Shown here: piece by piece, positions 21,472 through 56,102 of the stretch
How positions within the stretch are numbered: the first letter of the stretch is position 1
Layout: each line of letters starts with the position of its first letter
Program-made: the position numbers and the translations under genes
Notes under the pieces: generated by a model
The model's database searches: none
What the model was told of the DNA's origin: nothing
Seen by the model: the letters and a program-made list of their open reading frames with translations, nothing else
Source: a virus
DNA: 64,000 bases
Strand: one strand, 5' to 3'
Virus record (IMG/VR): IMGVR_UViG_3300029214_000148

Positions 21472-23772
21472 ATGAATCAGAATAAGAAGATAGCAGAGAA
21501 AAAATCAAGACCATACCAGCAGGAATGCATTGATAAGGTAGACAGCTTAAAAGAAGGAAGATTCCTGATTGCTCTTGCAACAGGGCTTGGGAAGACATGG
21601 ATCTTCTCCCATTTTAAGAGATACGGAAGAGTGCTTATTCTTTCACACAGGGATGAACTGGTCAACCAGCCGAGACGGTATTTCGACTGTAGTTTTGGCG
21701 TAGAAAAGGCAGAAAACCATTCCAATGGGGAAGAGGTAGTATCTGCGAGTGTTCAGACACTCAGCCATGACTCCCGTCTTAAGCAGTATAAGCCGGACGA
21801 TTTCCACACGATCATCATTGATGAGGCGCACCACGCTGCCGCGCCATCCTATAAGAAGATCTTAAATTACTTTTCCGGCGCTAAGCGTGTGATCGGTGTC
21901 ACGGCAACTCCGAAGCGTAGCGACAACGTCCGGTTAGATGACGTTTTTAACGAGATTATTTATGCAAAGGACCTTCGTTGGGGGATTAAAAATAAATATT
22001 TAAGTCCGGTGCACTGCCGGGAGGTCCGTGCAAAATATTCCCTGAAAGGCGTAAAAAAATCTATGGGGGATTTTAATGTATCCGATTTGGACGGTTGTAT
22101 TACGGAAGAAGCTGTAATAAGTGTTGCAAAAGTTCTTACAGACTGTCTTCAGGAGAATCGGCATATTCTTATTTATTGTACTACTGTCAGAACCTGTAAT
22201 TTCCTGAAGGCAGTAGTTGACAAACTGCTCCCGGAAAAAGAACGTGGCAGTGTTGCTGTTTTATCAGGGAAAACGCAGGAAGAAGATAGAAAAAATATGC
22301 TTGATGGTTTTATGAACGGGAGTGTCCGCGCCATTATTAACTGCATGGTTTTAACAGAAGGTACAGATCTTCCTATTACGGATACCATTATCAACTTCCG
22401 GCCGACGTGCAACGCGTCTTTGTATCAGCAGATCATCGGAAGAGGAACCCGGCTCTATGAAGGTAAGGAAAACTGTTTATGCATTGATATTCTTCCAGAT
22501 GATGGCAGCGGAACAAATCTGTGTACAGCTCTTACTCTTTTTGGTATAGATGCAAAACTTCTTGGAAAGAAACAGTCTCGAATGCTTGAAGGTGAGACTG
22601 ATCCGCTTGAGATTAGCGATGAAATTGCAGGACGATTTGCAGAACTTACAAAGGCATATGAATATCGGTTGGAGCAGGTTAATCGCTTTGTGCAGGAGCA
22701 GGAAGAAATTATATCTTCTGCGCGGAAGAAACCACATGCAGATTTAAACGACCTTGCGCATGCAGTAGATAAATATAATTCAAAGAAAATGGATGAATTC
22801 CAAAATGATTATGATTTCCTTGGAATGGATTACTCACTTATGCCGGATACGGAACATCGTTATTGTATCAAACCTACATGGAATGACCATATTTACCTTG
22901 CTGATCCAGATGTTATGGGAAATACAACAGTTACGTTTGATCTTACTGCTAGTGTCGGGAAATATTATATCGGTGAAATGAAAATGCAGGATGCAATTTC
23001 ATTTGTTCATGATTTTTGTATGATATCTCCAGATTATATGAAATATTCCTGGAACGTGGCATTACAGGATGAATGGGGGAAAATAAAAGCAACTGAAAAT
23101 CAAATTGGACGTCTTATGAATGAGTATGACGGGTTTCACAAAGGAAATATTAACAAACTTCAAGCATCCAGACTGATTGATCTTGCCTCTCGTATTTCGA
23201 AGATGAAGGCAGAGGGGAAAATGATGCTTATTACACCAAGAATGCAGGAAAAAACAATTGATAAAAAAAAGAAAATGTTTAAGGAAATACTCGAAAAGGA
23301 ACTGAGGGCAAAAGAGCAGGGGCGTAGTGAGTTTGGAGAATTCCAGTCGAAAATCTTTGCTTTGGCAGAAAAAAAGAAAAAAGACGAAGAGAAATTAAAG
23401 AACCAAAAGCCTTTGGAAGAAGAAATGCTCGAAAATGGGGCGATTACAGTTAATATTGCTGTTTTTAGTTCAAAAAAAACAGCAAGCGATGCGCAGATAA
23501 AATTTCTTGGTAATTTAAAAGATAAATTAAAAAACAGAGGAGTGGCTGTCGATAAAAAAATTCCTTATATAGGAATGGGAGCAGAAGAGGCAAGTGTATA
23601 TATTACTATATTAAAAACGCTTGTAGATCGTAACGTAGACCTTATAAAATATGGTAAAAAAATTTATTTTAATCCAAATACAATCATGAGTGTTGTATTA
23701 AAACTAAAGGACACTTCATCCAGAGAAATTAAATGTTGTATCCCGTTCGAAAAAATAGAAGAATTGAGATAA
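21472..23772 (+). CDS. SF2 (DEAH, ResIII-like) helicase with long C-terminal extension
   Basis: 766 aa; motif I ALATGLGKT; motif II IIIDEAHHAA; VTATPKR; no HD domain. Confidence 0.7.
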   Translation: MNQNKKIAEKKSRPYQQECIDKVDSLKEGRFLIALATGLGKTWIFSHFKRYGRVLILSHRDELVNQPRRYFDCSFGVEKAENHSNGEEVVSASVQTLSHDSRLKQYKPDDFHTIIIDEAHHAAAPSYKKILNYFSGAKRVIGVTATPKRSDNVRLDDVFNEIIYAKDLRWGIKNKYLSPVHCREVRAKYSLKGVKKSMGDFNVSDLDGCITEEAVISVAKVLTDCLQENRHILIYCTTVRTCNFLKAVVDKLLPEKERGSVAVLSGKTQEEDRKNMLDGFMNGSVRAIINCMVLTEGTDLPITDTIINFRPTCNASLYQQIIGRGTRLYEGKENCLCIDILPDDGSGTNLCTALTLFGIDAKLLGKKQSRMLEGETDPLEISDEIAGRFAELTKAYEYRLEQVNRFVQEQEEIISSARKKPHADLNDLAHAVDKYNSKKMDEFQNDYDFLGMDYSLMPDTEHRYCIKPTWNDHIYLADPDVMGNTTVTFDLTASVGKYYIGEMKMQDAISFVHDFCMISPDYMKYSWNVALQDEWGKIKATENQIGRLMNEYDGFHKGNINKLQASRLIDLASRISKMKAEGKMMLITPRMQEKTIDKKKKMFKEILEKELRAKEQGRSEFGEFQSKIFALAEKKKKDEEKLKNQKPLEEEMLENGAITVNIAVFSSKKTASDAQIKFLGNLKDKLKNRGVAVDKKIPYIGMGAEEASVYITILKTLVDRNVDLIKYGKKIYFNPNTIMSVVLKLKDTSSREIKCCIPFEKIEELR

Positions 23773-23945: not shown

Positions 23946-24180
23946 AGTTGCACCACGCAAGGGTGCAGGGGTGAAATATTATACTGAATCGTCGCTGCCT
24001 GCATAGATATAGTTGCATCCCTTATGGGATGTATGGGTTGAAATTCAATAGAAACAGATGCATTCGGAGGTGTTACAAGTTGCACCCCCGCAAGGGGTGC
24101 ATGGGTTGAAAATAAGAAATGGTAGGAAGGAATTCAGATATGAACATTAGTTGCATCCCGCAAGGGGTGCAGGGTTGAAA
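23946..24180 (+). CRISPR. degenerate small array, 4 repeats (GTTGCACCCCGCAAGGGGTGCATGGGTTGAAAT-like), 3 spacers
   Basis: repeats at 23946, 24011, 24078, 24149 with spacers of 34-37 nt; spacer 2 near-identical to spacer 2 of the array at 41014. Confidence 0.7.
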
Positions 24181-24343
24181 TAAAAGGATGTTGCCATATA
24201 TGTCAACCGAACTCGGCTATTGAATAACCGAGCATGAGGAAGCGGTTCTTCGGAACCGATGAATCATCCAGTATGACTGGTGAAGCGATGGTATACATAT
24301 TTGAACAAATCAAACAAAAATACAGAATCAGAGGAGAAATAAC

Positions 24344-24982
24344 ATGTCAAAAACAAAAGGACTATCAAAGAAGAAAAAATTACTAAAAACGCTCATGGAT
24401 GAATACCTACCATTTATTACGGTACTACTTATTGTCTTTTTGTATGCAGTAATTGCATTTATTAACATTCCAATTAATAAATGGCTTAGTTTCAACTGTC
24501 CACAATGGTCAGATGGGGAATATCATTTTTGCGATGCATTTTTTGTTCTTCCCTTATTTGAACTGATTATTTGTTTCATTGTGTTTGCTGTTTGTTATTT
24601 TGCCAGCAAGATAACAGCATACAGGAATTATTGTTGCATCCCCCTTACAGAAAATGAAATCAGGAAAAAAGGATTCAGAAACGCAGATGAGTATTTTACC
24701 TACGTGTGCGACATGTGTTCTTATGGTTTTAAAAATAATAAGGGCTACATTCTTGTTGGTGATGAAGACCTCAAAAAAATGTTAACTACTTGTCTGCAGG
24801 TATTTCCTGATAATGGGACAATTTTTTTAATAAACCGCCATATGGTACGAAATATCATATGGGATCCTGATTTTCTTTCCGCGCTTGCACTAGCCAGTGA
24901 CCAAAGGGCGGAAATCATCAATGGACGTGTTGTATTGTCTGGCACCACAAAAGATGGTGACAGAAAAGAATATAAGATATAA
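24344..24982 (+). CDS. two-helix membrane protein, paralog family A
   Basis: 212 aa; N-terminus MSKTKGLSKKKK..FINIPINKWLSF; paralog of 46140..46787; sits immediately downstream of a CRISPR array. Confidence 0.55.
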   Translation: MSKTKGLSKKKKLLKTLMDEYLPFITVLLIVFLYAVIAFINIPINKWLSFNCPQWSDGEYHFCDAFFVLPLFELIICFIVFAVCYFASKITAYRNYCCIPLTENEIRKKGFRNADEYFTYVCDMCSYGFKNNKGYILVGDEDLKKMLTTCLQVFPDNGTIFLINRHMVRNIIWDPDFLSALALASDQRAEIINGRVVLSGTTKDGDRKEYKI

Positions 24983-34457: not shown

Positions 34458-34509
34458 GAAAGAAGCCGGGGAATCCCGACTTTTCTGCTGCATTGTGTGT
34501 ATATTTTAA

Positions 34510-34582
34510 CGCCGCCTGCGGGATTCGAACCCGCGGATAAAGAGTTCAAAGCTCCCTGCGTTAACCTTTTCGCCAAGGCGGA
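34510..34582 (-). tRNA. tRNA-Gln (anticodon TTG)
   Basis: Manual fold. T-arm GCGGG-TTCGAAT-CCCGC; anticodon loop CTTTGAA; D-arm GCGA/ACGC. Position 1:72 is a U-C mismatch. No encoded CCA. Confidence 0.55.
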
Positions 34583-34583
34583 G

Positions 34584-34651
34584 CACACCCGGAAGGACTC
34601 GAACCCTCGTTACCGGTTTTGGAGACCAGTTTCTGTCCATCAGACAGGTGC
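34584..34651 (-). tRNA. tRNA-Trp-like (anticodon CCA) with truncated D-arm
   Basis: Anticodon stem-loop CTGGT-CTCCAAA-ACCGG and T-arm fold well; only 68 nt; D-arm TCTG-ATGGA-CAGA is abnormally short. Confidence 0.35.
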
Positions 34652-34655
34652 ATAA

Positions 34656-34726
34656 CAGGCGATAATGGAATCGAACCATTGTTTTCTGAGTCAGAATCAG
34701 ATGTCTTACCATTGAACGAATCGCCC
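34656..34726 (-). tRNA. tRNA-Gln (anticodon CTG)
   Basis: Anticodon stem TCTGA/TCAGA perfect; loop TTCTGAC; 4-nt variable loop; acceptor GGGCGAT/ATCGCCT. Confidence 0.55.
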
Positions 34727-34728
34727 AG

Positions 34729-34802
34729 TATCCCCAAAGGGACTCGAACCCTTAACCGACAGATTAGAAATCTGTTGCTCTTTCCAATTGAGCTATGGGG
34801 GT
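34729..34802 (-). tRNA. tRNA-Arg (anticodon TCT)
   Basis: Anticodon stem ACAGA/TCTGT; loop TTTCTAA; D-arm GCTC-AATTGGAAA-GAGC; one acceptor mismatch. Confidence 0.6.
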
Positions 34803-34808
34803 ATATAG

Positions 34809-34898
34809 CGCAGACACCGGGGATCGAACCCGGACAGCGGGTGTGCCGCATGCCACATTAGCAGTGTGGAGGGGTACCATTTACCTTTATATGTCTGC
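34809..34898 (-). tRNA. tRNA-Ser (anticodon GCT), class II
   Basis: Anticodon stem CCACA-CTGCTAA-TGTGG; long variable arm GCGG-CACA-CCGC; acceptor GCAGACA/TGTCTGC. Confidence 0.6.
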
Positions 34899-34903
34899 AT
34901 AAG

Positions 34904-34975
34904 AGGCATCGGAGGGGATCGAACCCTCGCCTTCCGGGTTGCAGCCGGACGCCTTCGCCGTTTGGCTACGATGCC
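34904..34975 (-). tRNA. tRNA-Cys (anticodon GCA)
   Basis: Acceptor GGCATCG/CGATGCC perfect; anticodon stem TCCGG/CCGGA; loop CTGCAAC. Confidence 0.65.
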
Positions 34976-35005
34976 ATATAATTCTTCCCGATAAGAGAAG
35001 ATGAG

Positions 35006-35089
35006 CGCTGTGGCAGGGAGTCGAACCCTGATATCCTTTCGGAATGACGGTTTTCAGGACCGTTGCTTTACCAGTTGAGCCACCACAGC
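35006..35089 (-). tRNA. tRNA-Ser-like (anticodon TGA), class II, with C at position 33
   Basis: Acceptor GCTGTGG/CCACAGC; anticodon stem ACGGT/ACCGT; loop CCTGAAA; variable arm TCC-GAAA-GGA. Confidence 0.5.
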
Positions 35090-35197
35090 AAAAATAAAAG
35101 CATACACCTCTCAATCGAAAGATGTATGCTTTGTAATTCCAGGTATTTCCAATATTCTCCCGGAAATTTTCCTACAATGACCACATTTCTTTCAATT

Positions 35198-35278
35198 TGA
35201 GACAATATTTATTTGCACGACAACTACGCCAGATACATGACTGCGACTGACTCATACTTGCCTGTGAATATTGTCTCA
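35198..35278. repeat. 12-bp inverted repeat pair (TGAGACAATATT ... AATATTGTCTCA) separated by 57 bp, inside the tRNA cluster gap
   Basis: read directly; lies between the two tRNA sub-clusters. Confidence 0.5.
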
Positions 35279-35334
35279 TTACTGCTGTAATCATTGATTT
35301 TCCCTTCCTTTCCTTGGTTTTCTTGAATATTTAG

Positions 35335-35408
35335 TGTGTCTGGTGGGACTTGAACCCGACGACCCCACGATTAAAAGTCGCGTGCTCTGCCAACTGAGCT
35401 ACAGACAC
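35335..35408 (-). tRNA. tRNA-Lys (anticodon TTT)
   Basis: Acceptor GTGTCTG/CAGACAC perfect; D-arm GCTC-AGTTGGCA-GAGC; anticodon loop CTTTTAA; weak T-stem. Confidence 0.6.
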
Positions 35409-35413
35409 ATAAG

Positions 35414-35485
35414 CGGATCAGGAGGGAATCGAACCCTCATCTTCCGGTAGACAGCCGGATGTACTAGCCGCTATACTACAGATCC
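35414..35485 (-). tRNA. tRNA-Asp (anticodon GTC) with U at position 37
   Basis: Anticodon stem TCCGG/CCGGA; loop CTGTCTA; D-arm GTAT-AGCGGCTA-GTAC. Confidence 0.55.
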
Positions 35486-35489
35486 ATAA

Positions 35490-35562
35490 AGCTCCCGTCC
35501 GGCTTCGAACCGGAAACCTTCTGATTACAAGTCAGATGCACTACCAGTTGTGCTACAGGAGC
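35490..35562 (-). tRNA. tRNA-Thr (anticodon TGT)
   Basis: Acceptor GCTCCTG/CGGGAGC; D-arm GCAC-AACTGGTA-GTGC; anticodon stem TCTGA/TCAGA. Confidence 0.65.
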
Positions 35563-35646
35563 AGGAACACTTCCGACGGGTGCTGCCCCGCTATCTCCGC
35601 CGTGACAGGGCGGTGACTCTGTTGTTTGTCCTCGGAAGTAAATAAG

Positions 35647-35728
35647 TGCGCCGGGGAGGACTCGAACCTCCGGTGTTTCTTTGTGGCTGATTTACAGTCA
35701 GCTGCTGTCGCCTCTGAGCCACCGACGC
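35647..35728 (-). tRNA. tRNA-Tyr (anticodon GTA), class II
   Basis: Acceptor GCGTCGG/CCGGCGC; anticodon stem GCTGA-CTGTAAA-TCAGC; long variable arm. Confidence 0.6.
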
Positions 35729-35733
35729 ATAAG

Positions 35734-35806
35734 CTGGTCCGGAGGGTCTCGAACCCTCAACGCCCCGGTTAACAGCCGGGTGCTCTACCATTGAGCTACG
35801 GATCAG
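35734..35806 (-). tRNA. tRNA-Asn (anticodon GTT)
   Basis: Anticodon stem CCCGG/CCGGG; loop CTGTTAA; D-arm GCTC-AATGGTA-GAGC. Confidence 0.6.
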
Positions 35807-35878
35807 AGCATGTGACGGGTCTCGAACCCGCCCGTCCTGCTTGGAAGGCAGGTGTGCCGCCAACAACACTTCACATGC
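35807..35878 (-). tRNA. tRNA-Gly (anticodon TCC)
   Basis: Acceptor GCATGTG/CACATGC perfect; anticodon stem CCTGC/GCAGG; loop CTTCCAA; A at position 8. Confidence 0.6.
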
Positions 35879-36431
35879 ATGCGGATAAAAGAAGTGCCTG
35901 TTTTCTCTTATCCATTCAGTTTTTTACCGCATCGCTGCGGAGTGGACAGGAGTGGTAACGATCCACCCTGTAAGGATTTTCAGTCCTTCGCTAATCCATC
36001 TCAGCTACCTGTCCATGGCTTTTTCTGCAATAAAAAAGCCGCATCAAGAAATTTCCTCTTCTCTCTGCGGTCATCTGCGTTTTGCAATATTTCGGTTTTA
36101 AGTGCCTGGTTTAAAATCGAAATCGACCGCGGGAAGGTGTATCATAATAGTTCTGTCCCCATGTTTTCCCGGATTTTGAGCATGAGAAACTAAACATATT
36201 GCTGAAATCGCCGTATGTTCTACAATCATTATTAAAATTTTTACTACTCATCATCTTTAACATGGTTTTCTTTTCCTTTCATTTTAATTAATGCTGGATA
36301 AACAAAAAGCCCGTCACTTAACTCAAAGCTACACATCCAAATAGCTCTGAGTTAAAAGACAGGCACTTCTTTTATCTCATGCACCTATCATATCATACTG
36401 ATCGTGAAGTGTCAACAGGAAATTTAAAAAA

Positions 36432-37289: not shown

Positions 37290-37622
37290 TTGGAATGTTT
37301 GACATGCAAGAAACACTGGTCGCAGGGAGGCCGCTATTCAGAGAACGTGAGAAACTGCCTGCATTATGAGGAAGAACCAAGAGGAAAAATGGTCCGCACA
37401 GAACTGTCTTTTCGTATGGATGCAGAGGCGGAAACTCCGGTGGTCAGATTTGGAGAGAAAATACTGGTTTCCGATGGTTCAAAAGCGGTCGAGATGACTG
37501 TGGTCAAGATCAACTGGGTTAATCTTCGGGATATGCTCTGCAATGTATCCGCGGATTATCATGAGAATGAGATGCCGCGATTTGAGAAAGAAAAGAAGTT
37601 CAAAGCATTACATGGAAAATAG
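37290..37622 (+). CDS. hypothetical protein
   Basis: 110 aa; TTG start after AGGAGGAGG; its stop abuts a small CRISPR array. Confidence 0.4.
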   Translation: MECLTCKKHWSQGGRYSENVRNCLHYEEEPRGKMVRTELSFRMDAEAETPVVRFGEKILVSDGSKAVEMTVVKINWVNLRDMLCNVSADYHENEMPRFEKEKKFKALHGK

Positions 37623-37728
37623 TTGCATTCCAGTGGAATGCATGGGGTGAAAGAAATAGGCAAATCGCATGACAATTTCTGAAATTAAATTGTTGCGCTC
37701 CCGTGGAGGGGGGCGTATGGATTGAAAT
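37622..37728 (+). CRISPR. small array, 2 degenerate repeats + 1 spacer, in the 3-prime UTR
   Basis: GTTGCATTCCAGTGGAATGCATGGGGTGAAAG / 38-nt spacer / GTTGCGCTCCCGTGGAGGGGGGCGTATGGATTGAAAT. Confidence 0.55.
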
Positions 37729-39317: not shown

Positions 39318-39422
39318 GCTGCATCATGTGCGGGGGTGTATGGATTGAAATGTCGGAGTATGGTGTAAGAATCATATATATTCCTACGTTGTGCTCCTCC
39401 CGGTTGGTGCATGGGTTGAAAT
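39318..39422 (+). CRISPR. small array, 2 degenerate repeats + 1 spacer, in the 3-prime UTR
   Basis: GCTGCATCATGTGCGGGGGTGTATGGATTGAAAT / 36-nt spacer / GTTGTGCTCCTCCCGGTTGGTGCATGGGTTGAAAT. Confidence 0.5.
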
Positions 39423-41013: not shown

Positions 41014-41232
41014 GTTGCGCCCCATTGGGTGCATGGGTTGAAATCTTTATGACCTTCTGAAAAGTGAGGGCATCTTAGTTGCACCCCCGCAAGGGATGTA
41101 TGGGTTGAAATTCAATAGAAACAGATGCATTCGAAGGCGTTACAAGTTGCACCCCGCGAGGGGTGTATGGGTTGAAATTGCAGAAAGCTCAGGATTGGAA
41201 GGTTGCATCCTATGGGATGCATGGATTGAAAC
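41014..41232 (+). CRISPR. small array, 4 degenerate repeats + 3 spacers
   Basis: repeats at 41014, 41078, 41146, 41202; spacer 2 (TCAATAGAAACAGATGCATTCGAAGGCGTTACAA) matches spacer 2 at 24044 with 2 mismatches. Confidence 0.7.
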
Positions 41233-41308: not shown

Positions 41309-41336
41309 CAATTTTTTAAAAATTTTCCAAAATCTT

Positions 41337-41363
41337 TTGACGATTTTTTAAAAGGCGCAATAT
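41337..41363 (+). promoter_or_regulatory. family-1 conserved promoter
   Basis: TTGACGATTTTTTAAAAGGCGCAATAT. Confidence 0.5.
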
Positions 41364-41598
41364 ACATATTGAAGGGATAAACAGGGGCTTACCGTTTGTT
41401 TCTTCAATAAGAGTTTTTCTCTTATATGCCTCCTTAAGTTTCCTGCGCTGCATTTACAGCATTTTGGCAGCGCAGGGGGAATCCACAGGACTGCATTTGA
41501 CGTTGTGTGGCGGCCTGCTCATCCGGTTCAACCCCGGAGGATTCCCATACCGCTTATTTTTGCGGAGACAAAAATTTTAAAAAATATTCAAAAATTCT

Positions 41599-41625
41599 TT
41601 GACGATTTTTTTAAAGGCGCAATAT
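41599..41625 (+). promoter_or_regulatory. family-1 conserved promoter upstream of the cas operon
   Basis: TTGACGATTTTTTTAAAGGCGCAATAT; leader shares GAAGGAATAAACAGGGGCTTGCCG with the 41337 copy. Confidence 0.55.
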
Positions 41626-41678
41626 GTGTATTGAAGGAATAAACAGGGGCTTGCCGCTGTTGATTACCAGAGTTAAAA

Positions 41679-41707
41679 GTTGTGCCCCTATGGGGTGCAT
41701 GGGTAAT
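41679..41707 (+). repeat. solo degenerate CRISPR repeat in the cas5 5-prime UTR
   Basis: GTTGTGCCCCTATGGGGTGCATGGGTAAT; hairpin retained, 3-prime handle degenerate. Confidence 0.5.
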
Positions 41708-41718
41708 AAGAGAAAGGA

Positions 41719-42393
41719 ATGGAAAAAGAAAAAATGGGAGTGAAACTAAAAGTCTGGGGAGATTACGCATTGTTCACCAGACCAGAACTGAAAACTGAAC
41801 GGTATACATACGATGTGATGACACCGTCGGCGGCTAGAGGAATTCTGGAATCTATCTACTGGCATCCGGGACTTCGGTGGTATGTAGACAAGATTCATGT
41901 ATTAAATCCGATTGCCACTACGAGCGTGAGAAGAAATGAACTTCTCAGTAAGATACCAAAGTCAAATATGCTGCAGGCATACAACGGCGGGGATGTGAAA
42001 CTGTATAACTCGTCAAGAGACGATATTATCCAGAGGGCATCTGTTATTCTCCGGGATGTCTGCTATGTGATTGAGGCGCATTTTGAAATGACAGGGAAAG
42101 CGAGCCCAACAGACAGCCCGGCAAAGTTTATAAGTATCTTTAACAACAGGGCAAGAAAAGGGGCATGTTATTCGATGCCGTATTTTGGTGTAAGGGAATT
42201 CCCGGCACACTTTGAACTCTGCGAAGGAGATGAAAAGATCCCATCCTACTATGAAGGACTTTCGGATAAGGATCTCGGGCTGATGCTTTATGATCTGGAT
42301 TACTCCTGCGGTAGAGATATCCAGCCAATGTATTATCATGCGATTATGAAAAACGGCGTTATTGACGTTGGGAACAGTGAGGTGCTTCGATGA
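41719..42393 (+). CDS. cas5: Cas5c (Cas5d), type I-C
   Basis: KLKVWGDYALFTRPELKTERYTYDVMTPSAARGILESIYWHP matches the Cas5d N-terminal signature. Confidence 0.85.
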   Translation: MEKEKMGVKLKVWGDYALFTRPELKTERYTYDVMTPSAARGILESIYWHPGLRWYVDKIHVLNPIATTSVRRNELLSKIPKSNMLQAYNGGDVKLYNSSRDDIIQRASVILRDVCYVIEAHFEMTGKASPTDSPAKFISIFNNRARKGACYSMPYFGVREFPAHFELCEGDEKIPSYYEGLSDKDLGLMLYDLDYSCGRDIQPMYYHAIMKNGVIDVGNSEVLR

Positions 42394-44129
42394 TCTTTCA
42401 GTCACTTGTGAAATTATATGAAACACTTGCGGATCAGGGAAAAGTGTCCCGTCCTGGCTGGTGTAATGCAAAGGTATCCTATGCGGTGGTTTTAAACCAT
42501 GATGGGACGATTAAAGATATTGTTTCCGTGAAACAGAAAGTGAAGAGAGGAAAGAAGACTGTTGAAATTCCAATAATTATGCAGGTTCCAGAGATGGTCA
42601 CCCGCGCTAACAACATTGCCTCCAGCTTTCTCTGCGAAAATGCAAAGTATCTCTTTGGAATTGACGAAAAGATGAGTTTGCGTACACTGGAATGTTTTAA
42701 GGCGGCAAAGAAAAAACATCTTGATATTCTTGATGTTGTGGATTCACCTGTAGCACAGACGGTATGTAACTTTTTCCGTTCATGGGATCCGGAACAGGCG
42801 TTGGATCAACCGGCTGTTGCAAAACTTGCAGAAGAGTTTTATAAAGGCGGAAACCTCGTTTTTGAAGTAGATGGGGAATATGTGCATGATGATGAAGAAG
42901 TCCGCAGGGCATGGATGGATTACAGCAGTGTACCATATGAAATGGTAACTGGAAGATGCCTTATTACTGGAGAGGAAGCGGAGATTGCCCGCACGCACGG
43001 GAAAATCAAAGGAGTTCCGGGAGCACAGTCATCTGGCGCGTCGCTTGTATCATTTAACGGAGCATCCCTTGAGTCTTATGAAAAAACACAGAGCTACAAC
43101 GCGCCGATTAGCACCTATGCGGCGTATGCATATGTGACCGCGCTGAATTACTTGCTTTCTACGGACGGGTATCACAGCAAGGTAGGAGATTCCATGGTGG
43201 TTTTCTGGACAGATTCCGGGGATGTGGATGATGTGAGCAGACTGCGGAAGATGATGGGAAATATCAATGAAAAGGATCACACCCTTACAGATACGGATGA
43301 AAAACTGTACGTCCTCTGCCTTGCACCAAATGCCGGGCGAATTGCAGTCCGGTTCTTCTATGAGGATGCGATCGGGGCAATCTGGGAAAACCTGTCCGAA
43401 CATGCCAGCCGGATGAAGATTGTAAAACCAGTATTTGAGGATCAAGAATTTATCAATATCTGGCAGATGCTCATGGAGACAGTCAACCAGAATCTTACAG
43501 ATAAAACACCTGTCCCGCATATGTCAGCAATGACGTTACAGTCAGTCATTTCGGATACACCGTATCCGCAGAGTCTGTATGCAGGTGTGTTATCTCGTAT
43601 CCGCGCGGAGCACAAAGGTGTTACTTACAGAAAAGCATCGATTATTAAAGCTTTTTTAATAAAGAACTACAAATGGGAGGAAGGAAAAAATATGGAAGCA
43701 TTAAATGAAGGCTGTAAGGATCGGGCATATATCCTTGGAAGACTGTTTGCGGTTATGGAAAAGGCACAGAAAGAAGCAGTTGGCAATATCAACCAGACAA
43801 TTTGTGATAAGTTTTACAATTCCGCGTGCACAACACCAAGATCGATCTTTCCAGTACTGATCAGGCTATCTAACAGTCATTTAAGTAAGTTGAAACGGAC
43901 AAAACCGGGGAGAGGATATTATTTTACAGCTAAAATGCAGGATTTAATGGATAAAATTCCGGTAACAGATGATGATCCGGGATTTCCGCGGCGTTTCTCA
44001 TATGAGGATCAGGGTAAGTTTGCACTTGGTTATTATCATCAGATGCGGGCGGAATATACAAGCAGTAAGTTAAAAGATAATGATTCAGAAGGTGATCAGA
44101 CAAATGCAGAGAATATGGAGGAAAACTAA
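42390..44129 (+). CDS. cas8c: Cas8c (Csd1), type I-C large subunit
   Basis: 579 aa between cas5c and cas7c; N-terminus MIFQSLVKLYETL typical of Csd1. Confidence 0.7.
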   Translation: MIFQSLVKLYETLADQGKVSRPGWCNAKVSYAVVLNHDGTIKDIVSVKQKVKRGKKTVEIPIIMQVPEMVTRANNIASSFLCENAKYLFGIDEKMSLRTLECFKAAKKKHLDILDVVDSPVAQTVCNFFRSWDPEQALDQPAVAKLAEEFYKGGNLVFEVDGEYVHDDEEVRRAWMDYSSVPYEMVTGRCLITGEEAEIARTHGKIKGVPGAQSSGASLVSFNGASLESYEKTQSYNAPISTYAAYAYVTALNYLLSTDGYHSKVGDSMVVFWTDSGDVDDVSRLRKMMGNINEKDHTLTDTDEKLYVLCLAPNAGRIAVRFFYEDAIGAIWENLSEHASRMKIVKPVFEDQEFINIWQMLMETVNQNLTDKTPVPHMSAMTLQSVISDTPYPQSLYAGVLSRIRAEHKGVTYRKASIIKAFLIKNYKWEEGKNMEALNEGCKDRAYILGRLFAVMEKAQKEAVGNINQTICDKFYNSACTTPRSIFPVLIRLSNSHLSKLKRTKPGRGYYFTAKMQDLMDKIPVTDDDPGFPRRFSYEDQGKFALGYYHQMRAEYTSSKLKDNDSEGDQTNAENMEEN

Positions 44130-44130
44130 G

Positions 44131-45042
44131 ATGAGCACACCAATTAAGAACAGATATGATTTCGTAGTATTATTCGACGTAGAGAATGGAAATCCGAACG
44201 GTGATCCGGATGCCGGAAATATGCCGAGAGTTGATCCAGAGACTGGCATCGGGCTTGTGACAGATGCCTGCATAAAGCGCAAGATCCGTAACTATGTGGA
44301 AACTGTAAAAGAAGATGCAGCCGGGTTCAAGATCTATATTAAAGAGGGGGTCCCGCTGAACCGGAGTGACCTTAAGGCAGTCGAAAGTCTTGGTATTGAC
44401 GTCGGTGACGACAAAAATGCACTTGAAGATGTAAAGAAGCTGAAAAAGACAGATGAAGATGTGGATCTTAAGCTCCGTGACTATATGTGTAGTAATTTCT
44501 ATGATATCCGTACATTTGGTGCTGTCTTGACTACCTTTACAAAGGCGGCATTAAACTGTGGGCAGGTACGTGGCCCGGTACAGATTGGTTTTGCAAAAAG
44601 TATTGATCCTGTTTTCAGCCAGGATATTACTGTAACCAGAGTTGCAATCACAACGGAAAAGGATGCGGAAAAGAAAAATACAGAAATGGGAAGAAAGAGT
44701 ATTATTCCTTATGGACTTTACCGTGTGGAGGGATATATTTCTGCTAATCTTGCCCGTAAGACCACCGGCTTTTCTGAAGACGATCTGGAACTGCTTTGGG
44801 AAGCAATCATTAACATGTTTGAGAATGACCATTCCGCAGCACGCGGGAAGATGGCAGTGCGTGAGCTCATCGTATTCAAGCATAACAGCGAGCTTGGCAA
44901 TTGTCCATCGTACAAACTGTTTGAAACTGTTGATGTTAAGAAGAATGATGGTGTTGAGTTTCCTCGTAAATATTCCGATTATGCAGTGACTATTCATGAG
45001 GATGCGATTCCGGATGGCGTGACAATGACTCGCAAAATCTAA
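44131..45042 (+). CDS. cas7: Cas7c (Csd2), type I-C
   Basis: VLFDVENGNPNGDPDAGNMPRVDPETGIGLVTDACIKRKIRNY is the Csd2 signature; start ATG after TGGAGGAAAACTAAG. Confidence 0.85.
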   Translation: MSTPIKNRYDFVVLFDVENGNPNGDPDAGNMPRVDPETGIGLVTDACIKRKIRNYVETVKEDAAGFKIYIKEGVPLNRSDLKAVESLGIDVGDDKNALEDVKKLKKTDEDVDLKLRDYMCSNFYDIRTFGAVLTTFTKAALNCGQVRGPVQIGFAKSIDPVFSQDITVTRVAITTEKDAEKKNTEMGRKSIIPYGLYRVEGYISANLARKTTGFSEDDLELLWEAIINMFENDHSAARGKMAVRELIVFKHNSELGNCPSYKLFETVDVKKNDGVEFPRKYSDYAVTIHEDAIPDGVTMTRKI

Positions 45043-45292
45043 AAAGATTTCCAGAGATTACAAGGCAACCCGCGTTTTGCGGGCTGCATCTGCTTGGGTT
45101 ATGCCGAAATGTAGAATTCCGGTGCGAACTGAAAGCTTACATAGCTTCTCTAGGAGACTCGCACCGGAAATGGAGGTATTAGTGTACAAATAGAACACAA
45201 AACCCAACTGTATAAGGCCGTTTGAGAACAATTAATTAGAGGAATTGTTTATATTTTGGCGATCGGGAGAGTTGTTTCTGTTCACTTTTACA

Positions 45293-46069
45293 GCTACGCC
45301 CCATGGAGGGCGTATGGATTGAAAATTGTATAGCCATCCCTGACAGCTTCCTCATTAGACGCTACGCCCCATGGAGGGCGTATGGATTGAAAATCTATAC
45401 TCTATTATGTGATGTACTAATGTCGCTGCTACGCCCCATGGAGGGCGTATGGATTGAAAATGATTGTTATTGGTTTTTATTCATGGAGAGGAAAGCTACG
45501 CCCCATGGAGGGGCGTATGGATTGAAAAGTAAGGTTTCGTCTCGAAGCCTTTATTCTGTTTTGCTGCGCCCCATGGAGGGGCGTATGGATTGAAATACCA
45601 AAATCTTTTGACATTCTTATAAATGGTAACAGCTACGTCTTATGGGGTACGTATGGATTGAAATCATAATAATTGTAGAGATCTCAATACAAAATAAAGC
45701 TGCGTCTCATGGAATACGTATGGATTGAAATGAAAAGGCGAGTTTGCGAAAGCAGATATTGGAATGTTGCGTCTCGTGGAGTACGTATGGATTGAAATTC
45801 CAACTTTAACTACATAACTATCCTGATAAACTTGCTGCACCCCATGGATAGTGTATGGATTGAAATTTAAAAAATCATGGATAACATCTGCGATAAGACG
45901 TTGCACCTCGCTAGGGGTGTATGGGTTGAAATTTCCATAATCGGTAGCCAATTATTATCATTAGGTGTTGCACCCCATAGAGGGTGTATGGATTGAAATT
46001 ATATAAAAATGATGAATATGTAAAAAAAATAAAAGAGTTACGCTCCATGGAGTGCGTATGGCTTGAAAC
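45293..46069 (+). CRISPR. type I-C-like array, 12 repeats in three repeat subfamilies, 11 spacers
   Basis: Repeats every 66-70 nt. Subfamily 1: GCTACGCCCCATGGAGGGCGTATGGATTGAAAAT (R1-R5). Subfamily 2: GCTGCGTCTCATGGAATACGTATGGATTGAAAT (R6-R8). Subfamily 3: GTTGCACCCCATAGAGGGTGTATGGATTGAAAT (R9-R11). R12 is degenerate. 3-prime handle GTATGGATTGAAAT conserved throughout. Confidence 0.8.
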
Positions 46070-46139: not shown

Positions 46140-46787
46140 ATGTCAAAAACAAAAGGAATATCAAAAAAGAAAGATGTATTAAAGGTATTTTGGAATGAGT
46201 GTGCAGTATTTAAGGTAGTTGTTTGTATTCTTGCGTATGTGATACTCGGCTTTATCAATATACCAATTAACAGGTGGCTTACATTTCATGTACCTAAATG
46301 GTCAGATGGGAAACTACATGATATAACAGGATCATTTTTTGTTCTTCCCATCCTTGAAGTATTAGCGGTCACTTTAATTTATCTTATCGCTAATGGATGC
46401 TTTTATTTCATCAGCAAGATGATCGCGTACAGGAATTACTGTTACATTCCGCTTACGGAAGATGAAATTAAAGGAAAGAAATTTAAGAATGCAAATGAGT
46501 ATTTTTCCTATGTCCTCAATGTCCTTTCCTATGGTTTTAAGAATGAAAAAGAAAATCTCCAGGTTAGTGATGATGATCTTCGAGAAATGCTTATAACTTG
46601 TCTGATTGTATTCCCTGATAATGGGACAATATTTCAGATAAAACCAGAAACTGCGTGGAATGTTTCAGACGACATCCTTTTCTCCGAAGCCGTTGAATTG
46701 AATTGCGGAAAAGCAGAAATAATTGATAAGCATGTTGTATTGTCTGGTGATAATAGAAACGGCAAAAGAGAAGAATATACAGTGTGA
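46140..46787 (+). CDS. two-helix membrane protein, paralog family A
   Basis: 215 aa; MSKTKGISKKKDVLKVFWNECAVFKV..FINIPINRWLTF; paralog of 24344; immediately downstream of the large array. Confidence 0.55.
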   Translation: MSKTKGISKKKDVLKVFWNECAVFKVVVCILAYVILGFINIPINRWLTFHVPKWSDGKLHDITGSFFVLPILEVLAVTLIYLIANGCFYFISKMIAYRNYCYIPLTEDEIKGKKFKNANEYFSYVLNVLSYGFKNEKENLQVSDDDLREMLITCLIVFPDNGTIFQIKPETAWNVSDDILFSEAVELNCGKAEIIDKHVVLSGDNRNGKREEYTV

Positions 46788-52773: not shown

Positions 52774-52788
52774 TTTCTTGCGGAGCAG

Positions 52789-52861
52789 AGCAGAGGAAGG
52801 CTCACCGGGCTCATGACCTGGGTGTCGGATGTTCGATTCCTTTCTCCGCAATTAATTTTAA
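52789..52861 (+). tRNA. tRNA (anticodon CAT; Met or Ile2) on the plus strand
   Basis: Acceptor TGCGGAG/CTCCGCA perfect; D-arm GAGC/GCTC; anticodon stem CCGGG/CCTGG; loop CTCATGA; weak T-stem GGATG/CCTTT; C at position 8. Confidence 0.5.
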
Positions 52862-54366: not shown

Positions 54367-54533
54367 GTGGGATGTTTTACCCGACTGACGGAAACGAATA
54401 CGAGATCAATATTCCATCTCCAGTGATACATGACTCTAAAGAAGAAGCTATGGCTGATGGAAACTTTGGTTACCGCTTTATACAGATAGATAGATCGGTT
54501 GGACCGGTAATCGTTATATTTGAAAGTCAATAA
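54363..54533 (+). CDS. small hypothetical protein, ATGA-coupled
   Basis: 56 aa; start overlaps the upstream stop. Confidence 0.3.
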   Translation: MSGMFYPTDGNEYEINIPSPVIHDSKEEAMADGNFGYRFIQIDRSVGPVIVIFESQ

Positions 54534-54845
54534 CCCATCACTAAAGTGACGGGCTTGTGTTTCAGCCACTACACAGTGGATATGCAGGCCCGATATTGAC
54601 TAGCCTAAGTGCTTCGGGCACTACGTTAAGAGAGAATACATAGTTACCTGCGGATGTAATGCCTAGTCTGCAGCAATAAGGGGACGTATTAAACAGTTTC
54701 ATTGGGGTGGAACAGTGTGCGGCAGATAAAGATGTACCTTTATCTCTTATCCATATAAACCTCTCTTAACATTGGCGAAGGCATTTTAACCACACTTCGG
54801 TGTGAGTACTTAAATCCGAAAGGATTTCAGAAAGGAGCATGACCT
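54534..54845 (+). ncRNA. putative IscB omega RNA (OMEGA guide RNA scaffold)
   Basis: 312-nt GC-rich noncoding tract directly abutting the iscB start, with multiple hairpins; position matches the known upstream omega-RNA arrangement of IscB loci. Confidence 0.5.
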
Positions 54846-56102
54846 ATGGTTTATGTGTTATCAAAAACCGGACAGCCTTTGATGCCGACAGAGAACCATG
54901 CAAAGGTCCGTGTTCTGTTAAAACAGCAAAAGGCAAAAATAGTACACGGCTGTCCGTTTACCATACAGTTGCTGTATGACAGTACAGACTATACACAGCC
55001 GGTAAGTCTTGGCATTGATGCCGGAAGCAGGCATATCGGCGTATCTGCCACTACGGAAACGAAAGTCCTGTACGAAGCAGATGTGACACTCAGAAACGAC
55101 ATCGTGGATCTTTTATCTACACGCCGGGAAGCACGGCGCACCAGAAGAAGCCGAAAGACTCGCTACCGCAAGCCGCGGTTCAATAACAGAACCCGCAAGG
55201 ACGGCTGGCTGGCTCCGTCCATACAGCAGAAGGTGGATACGCACCTTACTACGGTGCGCAAGGTAACGGAGATACTTCCAGTAAACAGCATCACGGTGGA
55301 AACTGCATCATTCGATATCCAGAAGATCAAGAACCCGGACATAGCCGGTACTGGCTATCAGCAGGGCGAACAGCTCGACTTCTGGAACGTACGTGAGTAT
55401 GTACTCTTCCGTGACGGCCATAAGTGCCAGTGCTGTAAAGGGAAGTCAAAAGATCCAGTGCTTAACGTGCATCATATCGAAAGCCGTAAGACCGGAGGAA
55501 ACGCACCGAATAACCTGATCACACTCTGCGAAACATGTCACAAGGGCTATCATAACGGTACCGTAAGCCTGCCGAAAAACATCAGGCGCGGCATGAAATT
55601 TAACGATGCTGCATTTATGGGTATCATGCGGTGGGCCTTTTTCAACAGGGTAAAGGAGACCTACGAGCCGCTTGGCATCATGGTAAAAATGACATATGGC
55701 TATATCACAAAAAATACAAGGATAGAGCACGACCTGCCGAAGGACCACTTCATCGATGCCAGATGTATCAGCGGGCACCCGGATGCAACAAGTGACGGTA
55801 CAGTCTTTTATCAAAAGAAAGTGCGCTGTCATAACCGCCAGATCCATAAACAGAAGATATTAAAAGGCGGTATCCGCAAACGGAACCAGGCCCCGTACCT
55901 GGTGAAAGGATTCCGGCTGTTTGAAAAAGTCAAATACCACGGGAAACAGTATTTTATCTTTGGCAGAAGGAGCAGCGGTTTTTTCGACATAAGGACTTTA
56001 GATGGCACCAAAGTAAATAAAGGCAGTGTAAGCTGTAAAAAGATCAGATCTTTGGACATGCCACGTAGCTATTTAACAGAAGAAAGAAAGGCAATAGTTT
56101 AG
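54846..56102 (+). CDS. iscB: IscB RNA-guided nuclease (PLMP domain, split RuvC with HNH insert)
   Basis: PLMP motif LSKTGQPLMPT; RuvC-I LGIDAGSRHIGVS; Arg-rich bridge helix RREARRTRRSRKTRYRKPRF; HNH CQCC...HHIESRKTGGNAPNNLITLCETCH; RuvC-III HFIDA. Confidence 0.8.
   Translation: MVYVLSKTGQPLMPTENHAKVRVLLKQQKAKIVHGCPFTIQLLYDSTDYTQPVSLGIDAGSRHIGVSATTETKVLYEADVTLRNDIVDLLSTRREARRTRRSRKTRYRKPRFNNRTRKDGWLAPSIQQKVDTHLTTVRKVTEILPVNSITVETASFDIQKIKNPDIAGTGYQQGEQLDFWNVREYVLFRDGHKCQCCKGKSKDPVLNVHHIESRKTGGNAPNNLITLCETCHKGYHNGTVSLPKNIRRGMKFNDAAFMGIMRWAFFNRVKETYEPLGIMVKMTYGYITKNTRIEHDLPKDHFIDARCISGHPDATSDGTVFYQKKVRCHNRQIHKQKILKGGIRKRNQAPYLVKGFRLFEKVKYHGKQYFIFGRRSSGFFDIRTLDGTKVNKGSVSCKKIRSLDMPRSYLTEERKAIV

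Follow-up and report, generated by a model that had tools for sequence, protein, structure and literature searches.

The repeats of type I-C CRISPR arrays have a 7-bp stem with a pentaloop, flanked by overhangs of 2 nucleotides (nt) on the 5' side and 11 nt on the 3' side, and Cas5c of Bacillus halodurans (BhaCas5c) reads the base of the stem, the U-G-G past the cut, and the 3' overhang while ignoring the loop and the 5' overhang (PMC8524198). A type I-C array is also carried by the "Hodor" conjugative megaplasmids of the human gut, where it was called "apparently degraded" in the one sentence that the main text of the preprint gives it (Yuan et al., bioRxiv 2026, PMC12934698); structure-preserving variation, gain at the leader end, mini-arrays, and targets are not part of that main text. 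Here we analyze a 64,000-nt stretch of DNA, IMG/VR record IMGVR_UViG_3300029214_000148 (the window), which very probably belongs to the Hodor megaplasmids, to judge from the published description: the points in common are a gut conjugative element of >300 kb, VirB4, type I-C cas genes, and a heterogeneous array. The main array of the window, at positions 45293 to 46069, is a type I-C array whose repeats are diversified yet compatible with Cas5c. On balance, we think it probable that this is a functional array which grows slowly and keeps old versions of its repeat as strata, constrained only by Cas5c and Cascade (CRISPR-associated complex for antiviral defense), with some recombination.

The locus shares the cas5c-cas8c-cas7 gene set, the repeat layout, and the 11-nt tail (TGGATTGAAAN) with canonical type I-C systems (Dvulg; Desulfovibrio vulgaris, B. 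halodurans, Streptococcus mutans, and Lachnospiraceae), as well as the placement of the array, downstream of the cas genes and on their strand, the spacer length of 33 to 37 nt, and the protospacer-adjacent motif (PAM) TTC. In contrast to those systems, it is without cas3, cas4, cas1, and cas2, its repeats differ at up to 11 of 33 nt, and extra mini-arrays are spread over ~22 kb. A complete bacterial type I-C locus taken as a control (L004; Cas8c 45% identical) carries 34 or more repeats of a single sequence, in which the 11-nt tail (TGGATTGAAAT) recurs. A reading of the window made from sequence only, before this analysis, had stated that active arrays normally keep near-identical repeats; this describes the control but not the present array, where repeats are diverse despite active adaptation.

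Plasmid-borne type IV-A3 systems acquire spacers in trans and are in conflict with other plasmids (Benz et al., 10.1101/2023.06.23.546257). They likewise combine a Cascade-like effector on a large conjugative plasmid, the absence of an adaptation module and of Cas3, and spacers against conjugative elements. The present locus differs in being of type I-C and without DinG; acquisition in trans is here a matter of interpretation, and repeat heterogeneity does not figure in the abstract of Benz et al. Degenerate repeats at the trailer end, and compensatory changes between CRISPR repeat families, have been described (Kunin et al. 2007, PMC1896005). As in that work, older repeats stray more from the leader-proximal consensus and hairpins carry compensatory changes, but here most of the array is affected rather than the last repeat alone, and compensation is seen between neighboring repeats rather than between organisms. 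Repeat-like elements that stand alone, and mini-arrays, also occur in cas loci (Shmakov et al. 2023, 10.1101/2023.03.03.530964). Such elements, the atypical repeats of CRISPR-associated transposons, and the mini-arrays of viruses are likewise short, divergent units near cas genes on a mobile element, whereas the main array here is an ordinary growing array. It is also no RNA anti-CRISPR or solitary decoy, which would have no cognate effector: it adjoins its own Cascade genes and carries targeting spacers.

The main array comprises 12 direct repeats (R1 to R12) of 33 to 34 nt and 11 unique spacers (s1 to s11), with a period of 66 to 70 nt from one repeat start to the next, and begins 250 nt 3' of cas7 on the same strand as the three cas genes. 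Tandem Repeats Finder misses it because the spacers depress identity. Allowing up to two mismatches, the window holds 25 copies of the 13-nt tail motif GTATGGATTGAAA where 4.2 would be expected, a count equaled by none of 100 shuffles, and a covariance model trained on the 12 repeats recovers 24 units in the 64 kb, all on the plus strand, half of them in the main array. The 12 repeats are of 10 distinct sequences and, at up to 11 differences between pairs, are far from the near-identity expected of an active array.

From the leader outward, all on the plus strand, the array falls into five segments. R1 to R3 are identical 33-nt repeats (GCTACGCCCCATGGAGGGCGTATGGATTGAAAA; hairpin -11.8 kcal/mol) and with s1 and s2 occupy 45293 to 45460. 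This block is the youngest part of the array; among the parsed relatives, s2 is confined to the window and s1 to the window and L048-51. Spacer s3 and the 34-nt repeats R4 and R5, with s4 between them, follow at 45461 to 45596. These two repeats have one additional G in the 3' arm and an 8-bp stem (-15.3 kcal/mol), R5 further having G at position 4 and T as its last base, and s3/s13 and s4 are present in most strains of the window's own lineage, lineage A. Spacers s5 to s7 with R6 to R8 lie at 45597 to 45798. The three repeats have GCGTCT../..TACGT in common (the GCGTCTC/..TACGT subfamily, with pair 7-19 as U:A) and a weak or bulged upper stem, folding at -3.9, -2.7, and -6.1 kcal/mol, respectively; their units are identical in 18 other assemblies. 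Spacers s8 to s10 with R9 to R11 lie at 45799 to 45999 and belong to the GTTGCACC subfamily, with GCACC../..GTGT in common and pair 6-20 as A:U. This repeat type recurs in sister lineages and in the mini-arrays, and R9 carries a G-to-T change specific to the window. The match of R9 to R11 to the small-array repeats, proposed in the sequence-only reading, holds: only 2 nt separate R10 from the unit at 41146 in a mini-array. R10 is also 3 nt from the old repeat of lineage B, and R11 is 4 nt from sister-lineage repeats.

The last segment, 46000 to 46069, consists of s11, which is the oldest spacer and is shared with sister lineages B1 and B2, and the terminal repeat R12 (46037 to 46069), which ends in GGCTTGAAAC and has a weak hairpin. 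R12 is a fourth repeat type, nearest to R1 at 5 differences. The three subfamilies first recognized (R1 to R5, R6 to R8, and R9 to R11) are thus as described, but R12 had gone uncounted, and the array has 12 repeats, not 11. Spacer s11 (46000 to 46036) is very AT-rich and differs from its counterparts in L005 and L006 by one substitution and a 3-nt indel, while the leader diverges by ~25 to 30%; this conservation may mean that s11 is constrained, either as a CRISPR RNA (crRNA) or by serving the downstream gene as promoter.

The variation follows the structure of the repeat. In the predicted hairpin, bases 3 to 9 pair with bases 16 to 22, and the 11-nt tail starts where the pairing ends. No variation is seen at G1, T3, C5, the last three bases of the stem (G-T-A), or, outside its x positions, in the tail T-G-G-x-T-T-G-A-A-A-x. 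The handle GTATGGATTGAAAT had been taken to be strictly invariant, which overstates the case, as 12 of its 14 positions are fixed across the 12 repeats and two vary: the base after TGG is generally A, with G in R10 and C in R12, and the last base is A in R1 to R4, T in R5 to R11, and C in R12. All 12 repeats keep the five basal pairs intact. Two pairs are compensated within the array, 6-20 (G:C or A:U) and 7-19 (C:G or U:A), with no unpaired cell in either, and pair 8-18 is disrupted in half of the distinct repeats. Fold energies are -10 to -15 kcal/mol for R1 to R5, R10, and R11 and about -6 kcal/mol for R8; in R6, R7, R9, and R12, where the upper stem is broken, they are -2.7 to -5.3 kcal/mol, no improvement on shuffled sequence. 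Alignment of the repeats and scoring of their covariation therefore uphold the proposed preservation of the hairpin for the basal pairs and the two compensated ones, but not for the upper stem of these four repeats.

Adding the relatives gives 32 distinct repeats, among which six of the eight stem pairs vary on both sides. In this set, 90% of cells are paired, compared to 30 to 69% when the partner is slid, and neither the paired fraction nor the covariation score is reached by any of 500 shuffles. R1 to R5, R10, and R11, whose stem is of 7 to 8 bp, have the type I-C layout, described as a 2-nt 5' overhang, a 7-bp stem, a loop of ~5 nt, and an 11-nt 3' tail ending ATTGAAA(C/T), while R6 to R9 and R12 retain only the basal 5 bp and the tail. 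Judged by sequence, what is conserved in the array corresponds to the features that Cas5c is known to read, and the loop, upper stem, and 5' overhang vary. Selection for processing by a single Cas5c, as proposed earlier, is supported by this correspondence and by the one cas5c gene that adjoins the array.

To establish how the array changes, it was parsed in 50 related loci. Eighteen other lineage A assemblies, from different samples, carry s5 to s11, and each variant repeat occupies in them the exact place that it has in the window. This answers the objection that the heterogeneity might come from chimeric repeats or, as foreseen in the sequence-only reading, from repeats collapsed in assembly: the same variants, positions, and spacers recur across different studies and assemblers, and an artefact is excluded for practical purposes. 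Nothing was found in its favor; only G-run length (GGG or GGGG; 5 to 7 G at 37692) varies in a manner that may be in part a matter of sequencing or of slippage. The G runs are hypervariable between strains, with 5, 6, or 7 G in the mini-array unit at 37692 to 37728 and GGG or GGGG in the 3' arm of the first repeats (R1 to R4), which points to slippage within repeats.

Over the shared spacers s4 to s11, lineage A shows five states of the leader end: s1 and s2 in the window, s16 and s1 in L048-51, s12 in ten loci, s14 in eight loci, and no addition in L015, L017, and L022. Every added spacer is accompanied by a copy of the first repeat of that lineage. The B1 strain L054 likewise has additional spacers at its leader end. 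Differences of this kind over a shared older part are the mark of an active array; the leader end is adaptive, the array is not dead, and its growth is polarized at the leader. The strains also record recombination between repeats: s5 to s10 are lost in L028 and L032 and s4 in L015 and L023, L025 carries s13 in duplicate, L015 has a hybrid repeat, and internal spacers flanked by shared ones are not the same in L054 and L006.

Comparison with the sister lineages bears on how the mixed repeats arose. The leader (45043 to 45292, plus strand), as aligned between the window, L006, and L005, is homologous in the three lineages, ~70 to 75% identical with conserved blocks, among them an inverted repeat (GGTGCGAAC...TCGCACC) and a core rich in A and T (TTAATTAGAGGAATTGTTTATATTTTGG). 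The first repeats on these leaders differ: that of B1 is GTTGCACCCCGCGAGGGTGCATGGATTGAAAT, in 4 to 5 identical leader-proximal copies, and that of B2 is GTGGCGCCCCGTGGAGGGGCGCATGGGTTGAAAC. Farther from the leader, both lineages carry older repeats, of types GTTGCACC and GTTGCATC, and the s11 that the window also has. In L006 (13300 to 13400) and L005 (13330 to 13400), an additional degenerate unit past the terminal repeat (GTCGCGCCCCGCGAGGGGGGTATATGGATTAAGG) resembles the classical type I-C start GTCGCGCCCC and may be a still older fossil. A degenerate pattern covering all three subfamilies was found as one isolated unit in 185,579 GTDB species-representative genomes and not at all in IMG/VR. 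The sole genome match lies in a tiny cluster of non-identical I-C-like units (GTTGCATCCTTCACGGGTGCACGGATTGAAAT, GTTGCATCCTGTATGCGGGTGTATGGATTGAAAT) in Enterococcus aquimarinus DSM 17690 (L035:4050-4330). An IMG/VR contig with the same 13-nt tail (L001) proved to hold an unrelated, uniform type I-C array and was set aside. Polarized growth, first repeats that are peculiar to each lineage on homologous leaders, blocks of identical repeats next to the leader (A and B1), and the lack of donor arrays in these scans together argue for the accumulation of strata.

The alternative put forward from sequence only was that recombination had joined arrays of different origin, possibly from distinct host systems. 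In its general form, blocks with differing repeats, from the element's own mini-arrays, co-resident plasmids, or hosts, would have been joined into a composite while selection by Cas5c kept them compatible. We regard this as an unlikely main cause. The leaders are homologous while the first repeats differ, which implies that the first repeat diverged in place, and new spacers always carry copies of the current first repeat; the genome and IMG/VR scans, in which the single Enterococcus unit was the only find, give no arrays of any subfamily and no support for distinct host systems; and the R6 to R8 type has no close relative elsewhere in the data, its nearest lying at 7 to 9 differences. Several observations are nevertheless as a composite would predict: the closeness of R10 to the unit at 41146 and of R11 to sister-lineage repeats; the differences in R12 and in the downstream (trailer) gene among lineages that share s11, this gene having a paralogue past the 24-kb mini-array; one spacer found in two mini-arrays; a reversion of pair 7-19 to C:G, awkward under simple descent; and the direct recombination events in L028, L032, L025, L015, L006, and L054. 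The deletions, the duplication, the L054 and L006 differences, R10, and the trailer flank establish recombination as a contributor. Recombination between units, including those in arrays of related or co-resident elements, has also shaped the array, and it and the layering of old repeats are not mutually exclusive.

The spacers indicate what the array is directed against. When metagenome contigs were scanned for exact matches to part of s14, two were returned, L036 and L037. Four spacers from four lineages match one 684-bp open reading frame (ORF; L036:2998-3681) perfectly, s14 at L036:3190-3223 and B3a at L036:3439-3473 on the plus strand and B1n3 at L036:3229-3196 and s12 at L036:3355-3321 on the minus strand. 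The type I-C PAM 5'-TTC precedes all four perfect protospacers in both L036 and L037, which argues that the spacers being gained by the array are genuinely of type I-C and directed against a rival conjugative element. In diverged copies of the target gene (86% protein identity), there are 1 to 5 mismatches, and the PAM is altered in two of the four. No family assignment was found for the 227-amino-acid (aa) target. In other contigs (among L056-L060), it and a 117-aa partner head a conjugation module with genes for a VirD4/TraG coupling protein, an ADP-ribosyltransferase, and ParA, and a further contig has a TraC/VirB4-like ATPase and a coupling protein; in L036, it lies beside an IS21 transposase amid chromosomal genes. 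As it has been hit independently by four plasmid lineages, it is a candidate key gene of the rival element. Thirty spacers joined as a single query had no match in PLSDB or INPHARED, and three leader-end spacers had no exact match in IMG/VR. Within the window and ~650 kb of related loci there were no protospacers; the sole match there is of s5 (45597 to 45631), which has 15 nt, adjoining TTT, in common with the cas5c promoter region (41327 to 41341) and probably reflects a shared promoter motif.

These acquisitions also bear on whether the array is decaying, with only the leader-proximal units at work and the distal repeats fossils heading for loss, as the preprint's wording of an apparently degraded repeat array would have it. 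The leader end gains spacers with the correct PAM, the cas genes are intact across a cluster of 366 members, and the distal units are unchanged in the 18 other assemblies. Blind to structure, random decay would not spare the tail, the five basal pairs of every distal repeat, and two compensated pairs, and an array orphaned in this way would gain nothing. Decay of the array as a whole is accordingly improbable, more so than a composite origin. The same distal units are, however, static and have been deleted in two strains; the hairpins of R6, R7, R9, and R12 are at the level of shuffled sequence, a further disruptive change in R9 is found in the window and not in other strains, and spacer s4 (45529 to 45562), with a 9-bp hairpin and a T-rich run behind it, resembles a terminator on the transcribed strand. 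The weak hairpins and s4 leave room for partial decay of the distal half.

Not all observations sit well with strata in a functional array, and the following weigh against it. From old to new, pair 7-19 runs C:G, U:A, and C:G again, and positions 2 and 4 flip repeatedly along the array. The neighbors of R10 resemble it less than a mini-array repeat does, and R12 is nearest to R1. Distance along the array predicts sequence difference weakly (Mantel r = 0.28, reached in 156 of 5000 permutations). The four shuffled-level hairpins mean that some distal units may escape processing, and the terminator-like s4 could lower expression of the older units. Adaptation genes or cas3 may also lie elsewhere on the element, of which 64 kb out of probably ~350 kb is seen.

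Upstream of the leader, cas5c, cas8c, and cas7 are intact and adjoining on the plus strand, all above the NCBIfam cut-offs, and thus constitute a type I-C effector. cas5c (41719 to 42393; Pfam Cas_Cas5d, 2.2e-38; NCBIfam type I-C Cas5c, 177 bits) encodes the pre-crRNA endonuclease and Cascade subunit; gene calls in relatives start it 15 nt downstream, giving 219 aa. Compared to the D. vulgaris Cas5c chain in solved Cascade structures (E = 1.8e-65), the protein has Tyr and Lys aligned to triad positions, of which Lys is the sole triad residue reported invariant (PMC8524198). cas8c, or Csd1 (42390 to 44129; Pfam Cas_Csd1, 1.2e-165; NCBIfam, 399 bits), encodes the large subunit. The 366 members of its 90%-identity cluster are from human-gut metagenomes, and the next relatives, in Roseburia and Eubacterium type I-C systems, are ~50% identical. 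cas7, or Csd2 (44131 to 45042; Pfam Cas_Cas7, 1e-107; NCBIfam, 342 bits), encodes the 303-aa backbone subunit by the gene calls of relatives, while the longest ORF begins at 44080.

No cas1, cas2, cas4, or cas3 was found among the scanned ORFs of the 64-kb window, with ORFs of <100 aa far from the locus falling outside the scan, and none of cas1, cas2, and cas4 among the called genes within the 10-kb flanks of ~30 relatives. There was likewise no match to Cas3 or an HD domain among the scanned window ORFs, which represent the 64 kb of the element that is seen. The one large helicase, of 766 aa (21472 to 23772), was considered as a hidden Cas3 and rejected: it is RadD/ResIII-like, without an HD domain, a Cas3 family match, or similarity to a type I-C Cas3. 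In L034, a similar helicase lies directly 5' of cas5c. This junction was considered as a sign of recombination between arrays, and the idea was dropped because there is no hybrid mini-array there.

How the locus would work can be set out as follows. The array would be transcribed from the leader, and Cas5c would cut each repeat at the 3' base of the hairpin, so that the crRNA would retain the 11-nt UGGAUUGAAAN as its 5' handle and load into the Cas5c-Cas8c-Cas7 Cascade. Growth would be rare and limited to the leader end, each new spacer bringing a copy of the then-current first repeat. As there is no cas1, cas2, or cas4 nearby, the integrase would be supplied in trans, by a type I-C system of the host or from elsewhere on the element. 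With slow turnover, old units would persist, and both the first repeat and its fossil copies would drift, selection retaining only the base of the stem (through compensatory pairing), the U-G-G past the cut, and the handle. The subfamilies would then be mostly age classes, with the layers blurred by occasional recombination between units. The crRNAs would be directed at rival mobile elements, notably at the first gene of their conjugation module, and Cascade, having no Cas3 of its own, would silence the target or borrow the Cas3 of the host.

Of these steps, processing of every repeat variant is predicted from the sequence features that the repeats retain, and interference is presumed to proceed by silencing or through a borrowed host Cas3. 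Adaptation in trans is the most likely route; an element similar to the leader inverted repeat (GTGCGAAT...ATTCGCAC) is found in the leader of a complete bacterial type I-C locus, which gives a weak hint. A more specific proposal, which we offer tentatively as a possibility rather than an expectation, is that the Cas3-less Cascade captures spacers through host type I-C Cas1-Cas2-Cas4 in trans and silences the transfer operon of rivals. With an integrase that is borrowed and rarely available, the repeats would be freed from integrase specificity and held by Cas5c recognition alone, in the main array and the mini-arrays alike. The locus would then be to type I what the plasmid systems of type IV-A3 are to type IV, and a natural record of the drift that a repeat can undergo and still be processed.

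The remaining units recovered by the covariance model include four mini-arrays on the plus strand. One, with four variant repeats, is upstream of cas5c (41014 to 41232); two, each with two variant repeats and one spacer, are at 39318 to 39422 and 37622 to 37728; and one, with four variant repeats and three spacers, is 18 kb upstream of the cas genes (23947 to 24181). Their spacers and repeat variants are unchanged across lineage A strains. Two mini-arrays that lie 17 kb from each other have a spacer in common (24045 to 24078 and 41112 to 41145), with two mismatches and with flanking repeats that are similar, not identical. No partial match to a cas promoter was found among the mini-array spacers.

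Other features stand close to these arrays and to cas5c. A degenerate repeat unit at 41679 to 41710 (GTTGTGCCCCTATGGGGTGCATGGGTAATAAG), just before the cas5c start in the 5' untranslated region, has an intact hairpin and a degenerate tail and could be a site of Cas5c binding or autoregulation. Farther upstream, an 85-nt direct repeat (41310 to 41394 and 41572 to 41656; 86% identical), which includes TTGACG and a stretch rich in A and T, has the look of a promoter region duplicated upstream of cas5c; its first copy contains the 15 nt shared with s5. In a scan for consensus promoters, sites were no commoner than in shuffled sequence. The genes that follow the main array (46140 to 46787) and the 24-kb mini-array (24344 to 24982) are paralogues, both beginning MSKTKG..., without a family match in Pfam, NCBIfam, or PADLOC.

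The carrier of the array is a large conjugative element of human-gut Bacillota. The window has genes for a VirB4-like ATPase of conjugation (CD1110 family; 751 bits), PrgI, PcfJ, and topoisomerase III, along with DNA methylases and a sigma factor, and its relatives come from gut metagenomes, in contigs of up to 356,732 bp. Rep_3, ParA/ParB/ParM, and multiple sortases, which are Hodor traits, are outside the gene set of the window. A phage origin, suggested by a tRNA cluster and by gene order on one strand, was dropped in view of VirB4, PrgI, PcfJ, and topoisomerase III and of the absence of an INPHARED or IMG/VR match. The cluster consists of 13 tRNA genes at 34509 to 36014 on the minus strand, opposite to nearly all protein genes, and is unusual cargo for a conjugative plasmid; a tRNA-Met gene is found separately at 52778 to 52852 on the plus strand. 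The window also carries an IscB-type RNA-guided nuclease unit, in which a HEARO (omega) RNA (54526 to 54790; 115.6 bits) is followed by a 418-aa RRXRR/HNH protein (54846 to 56102).

These results correct the impression that the array on these plasmids is simply degraded. If the proposed history is true, the array would be a natural mutational scan of the type I-C repeat, in which a single Cas5c presumably serves all variants, 10 of them in this array and ~30 across the element family, and in which the base of the stem, the U-G-G, and the handle would be the only hard requirements. It would also suggest that a type I effector on a common gut megaplasmid stays adaptive without an integrase or nuclease of its own. 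Four lineages have independently aimed the array at the same gene of a competing conjugative element, and the locus raises two testable questions for these plasmids: whether type I systems gain spacers in trans, as type IV-A3 systems do, and whether a Cas3-less Cascade acts by silencing in plasmid-plasmid conflict.

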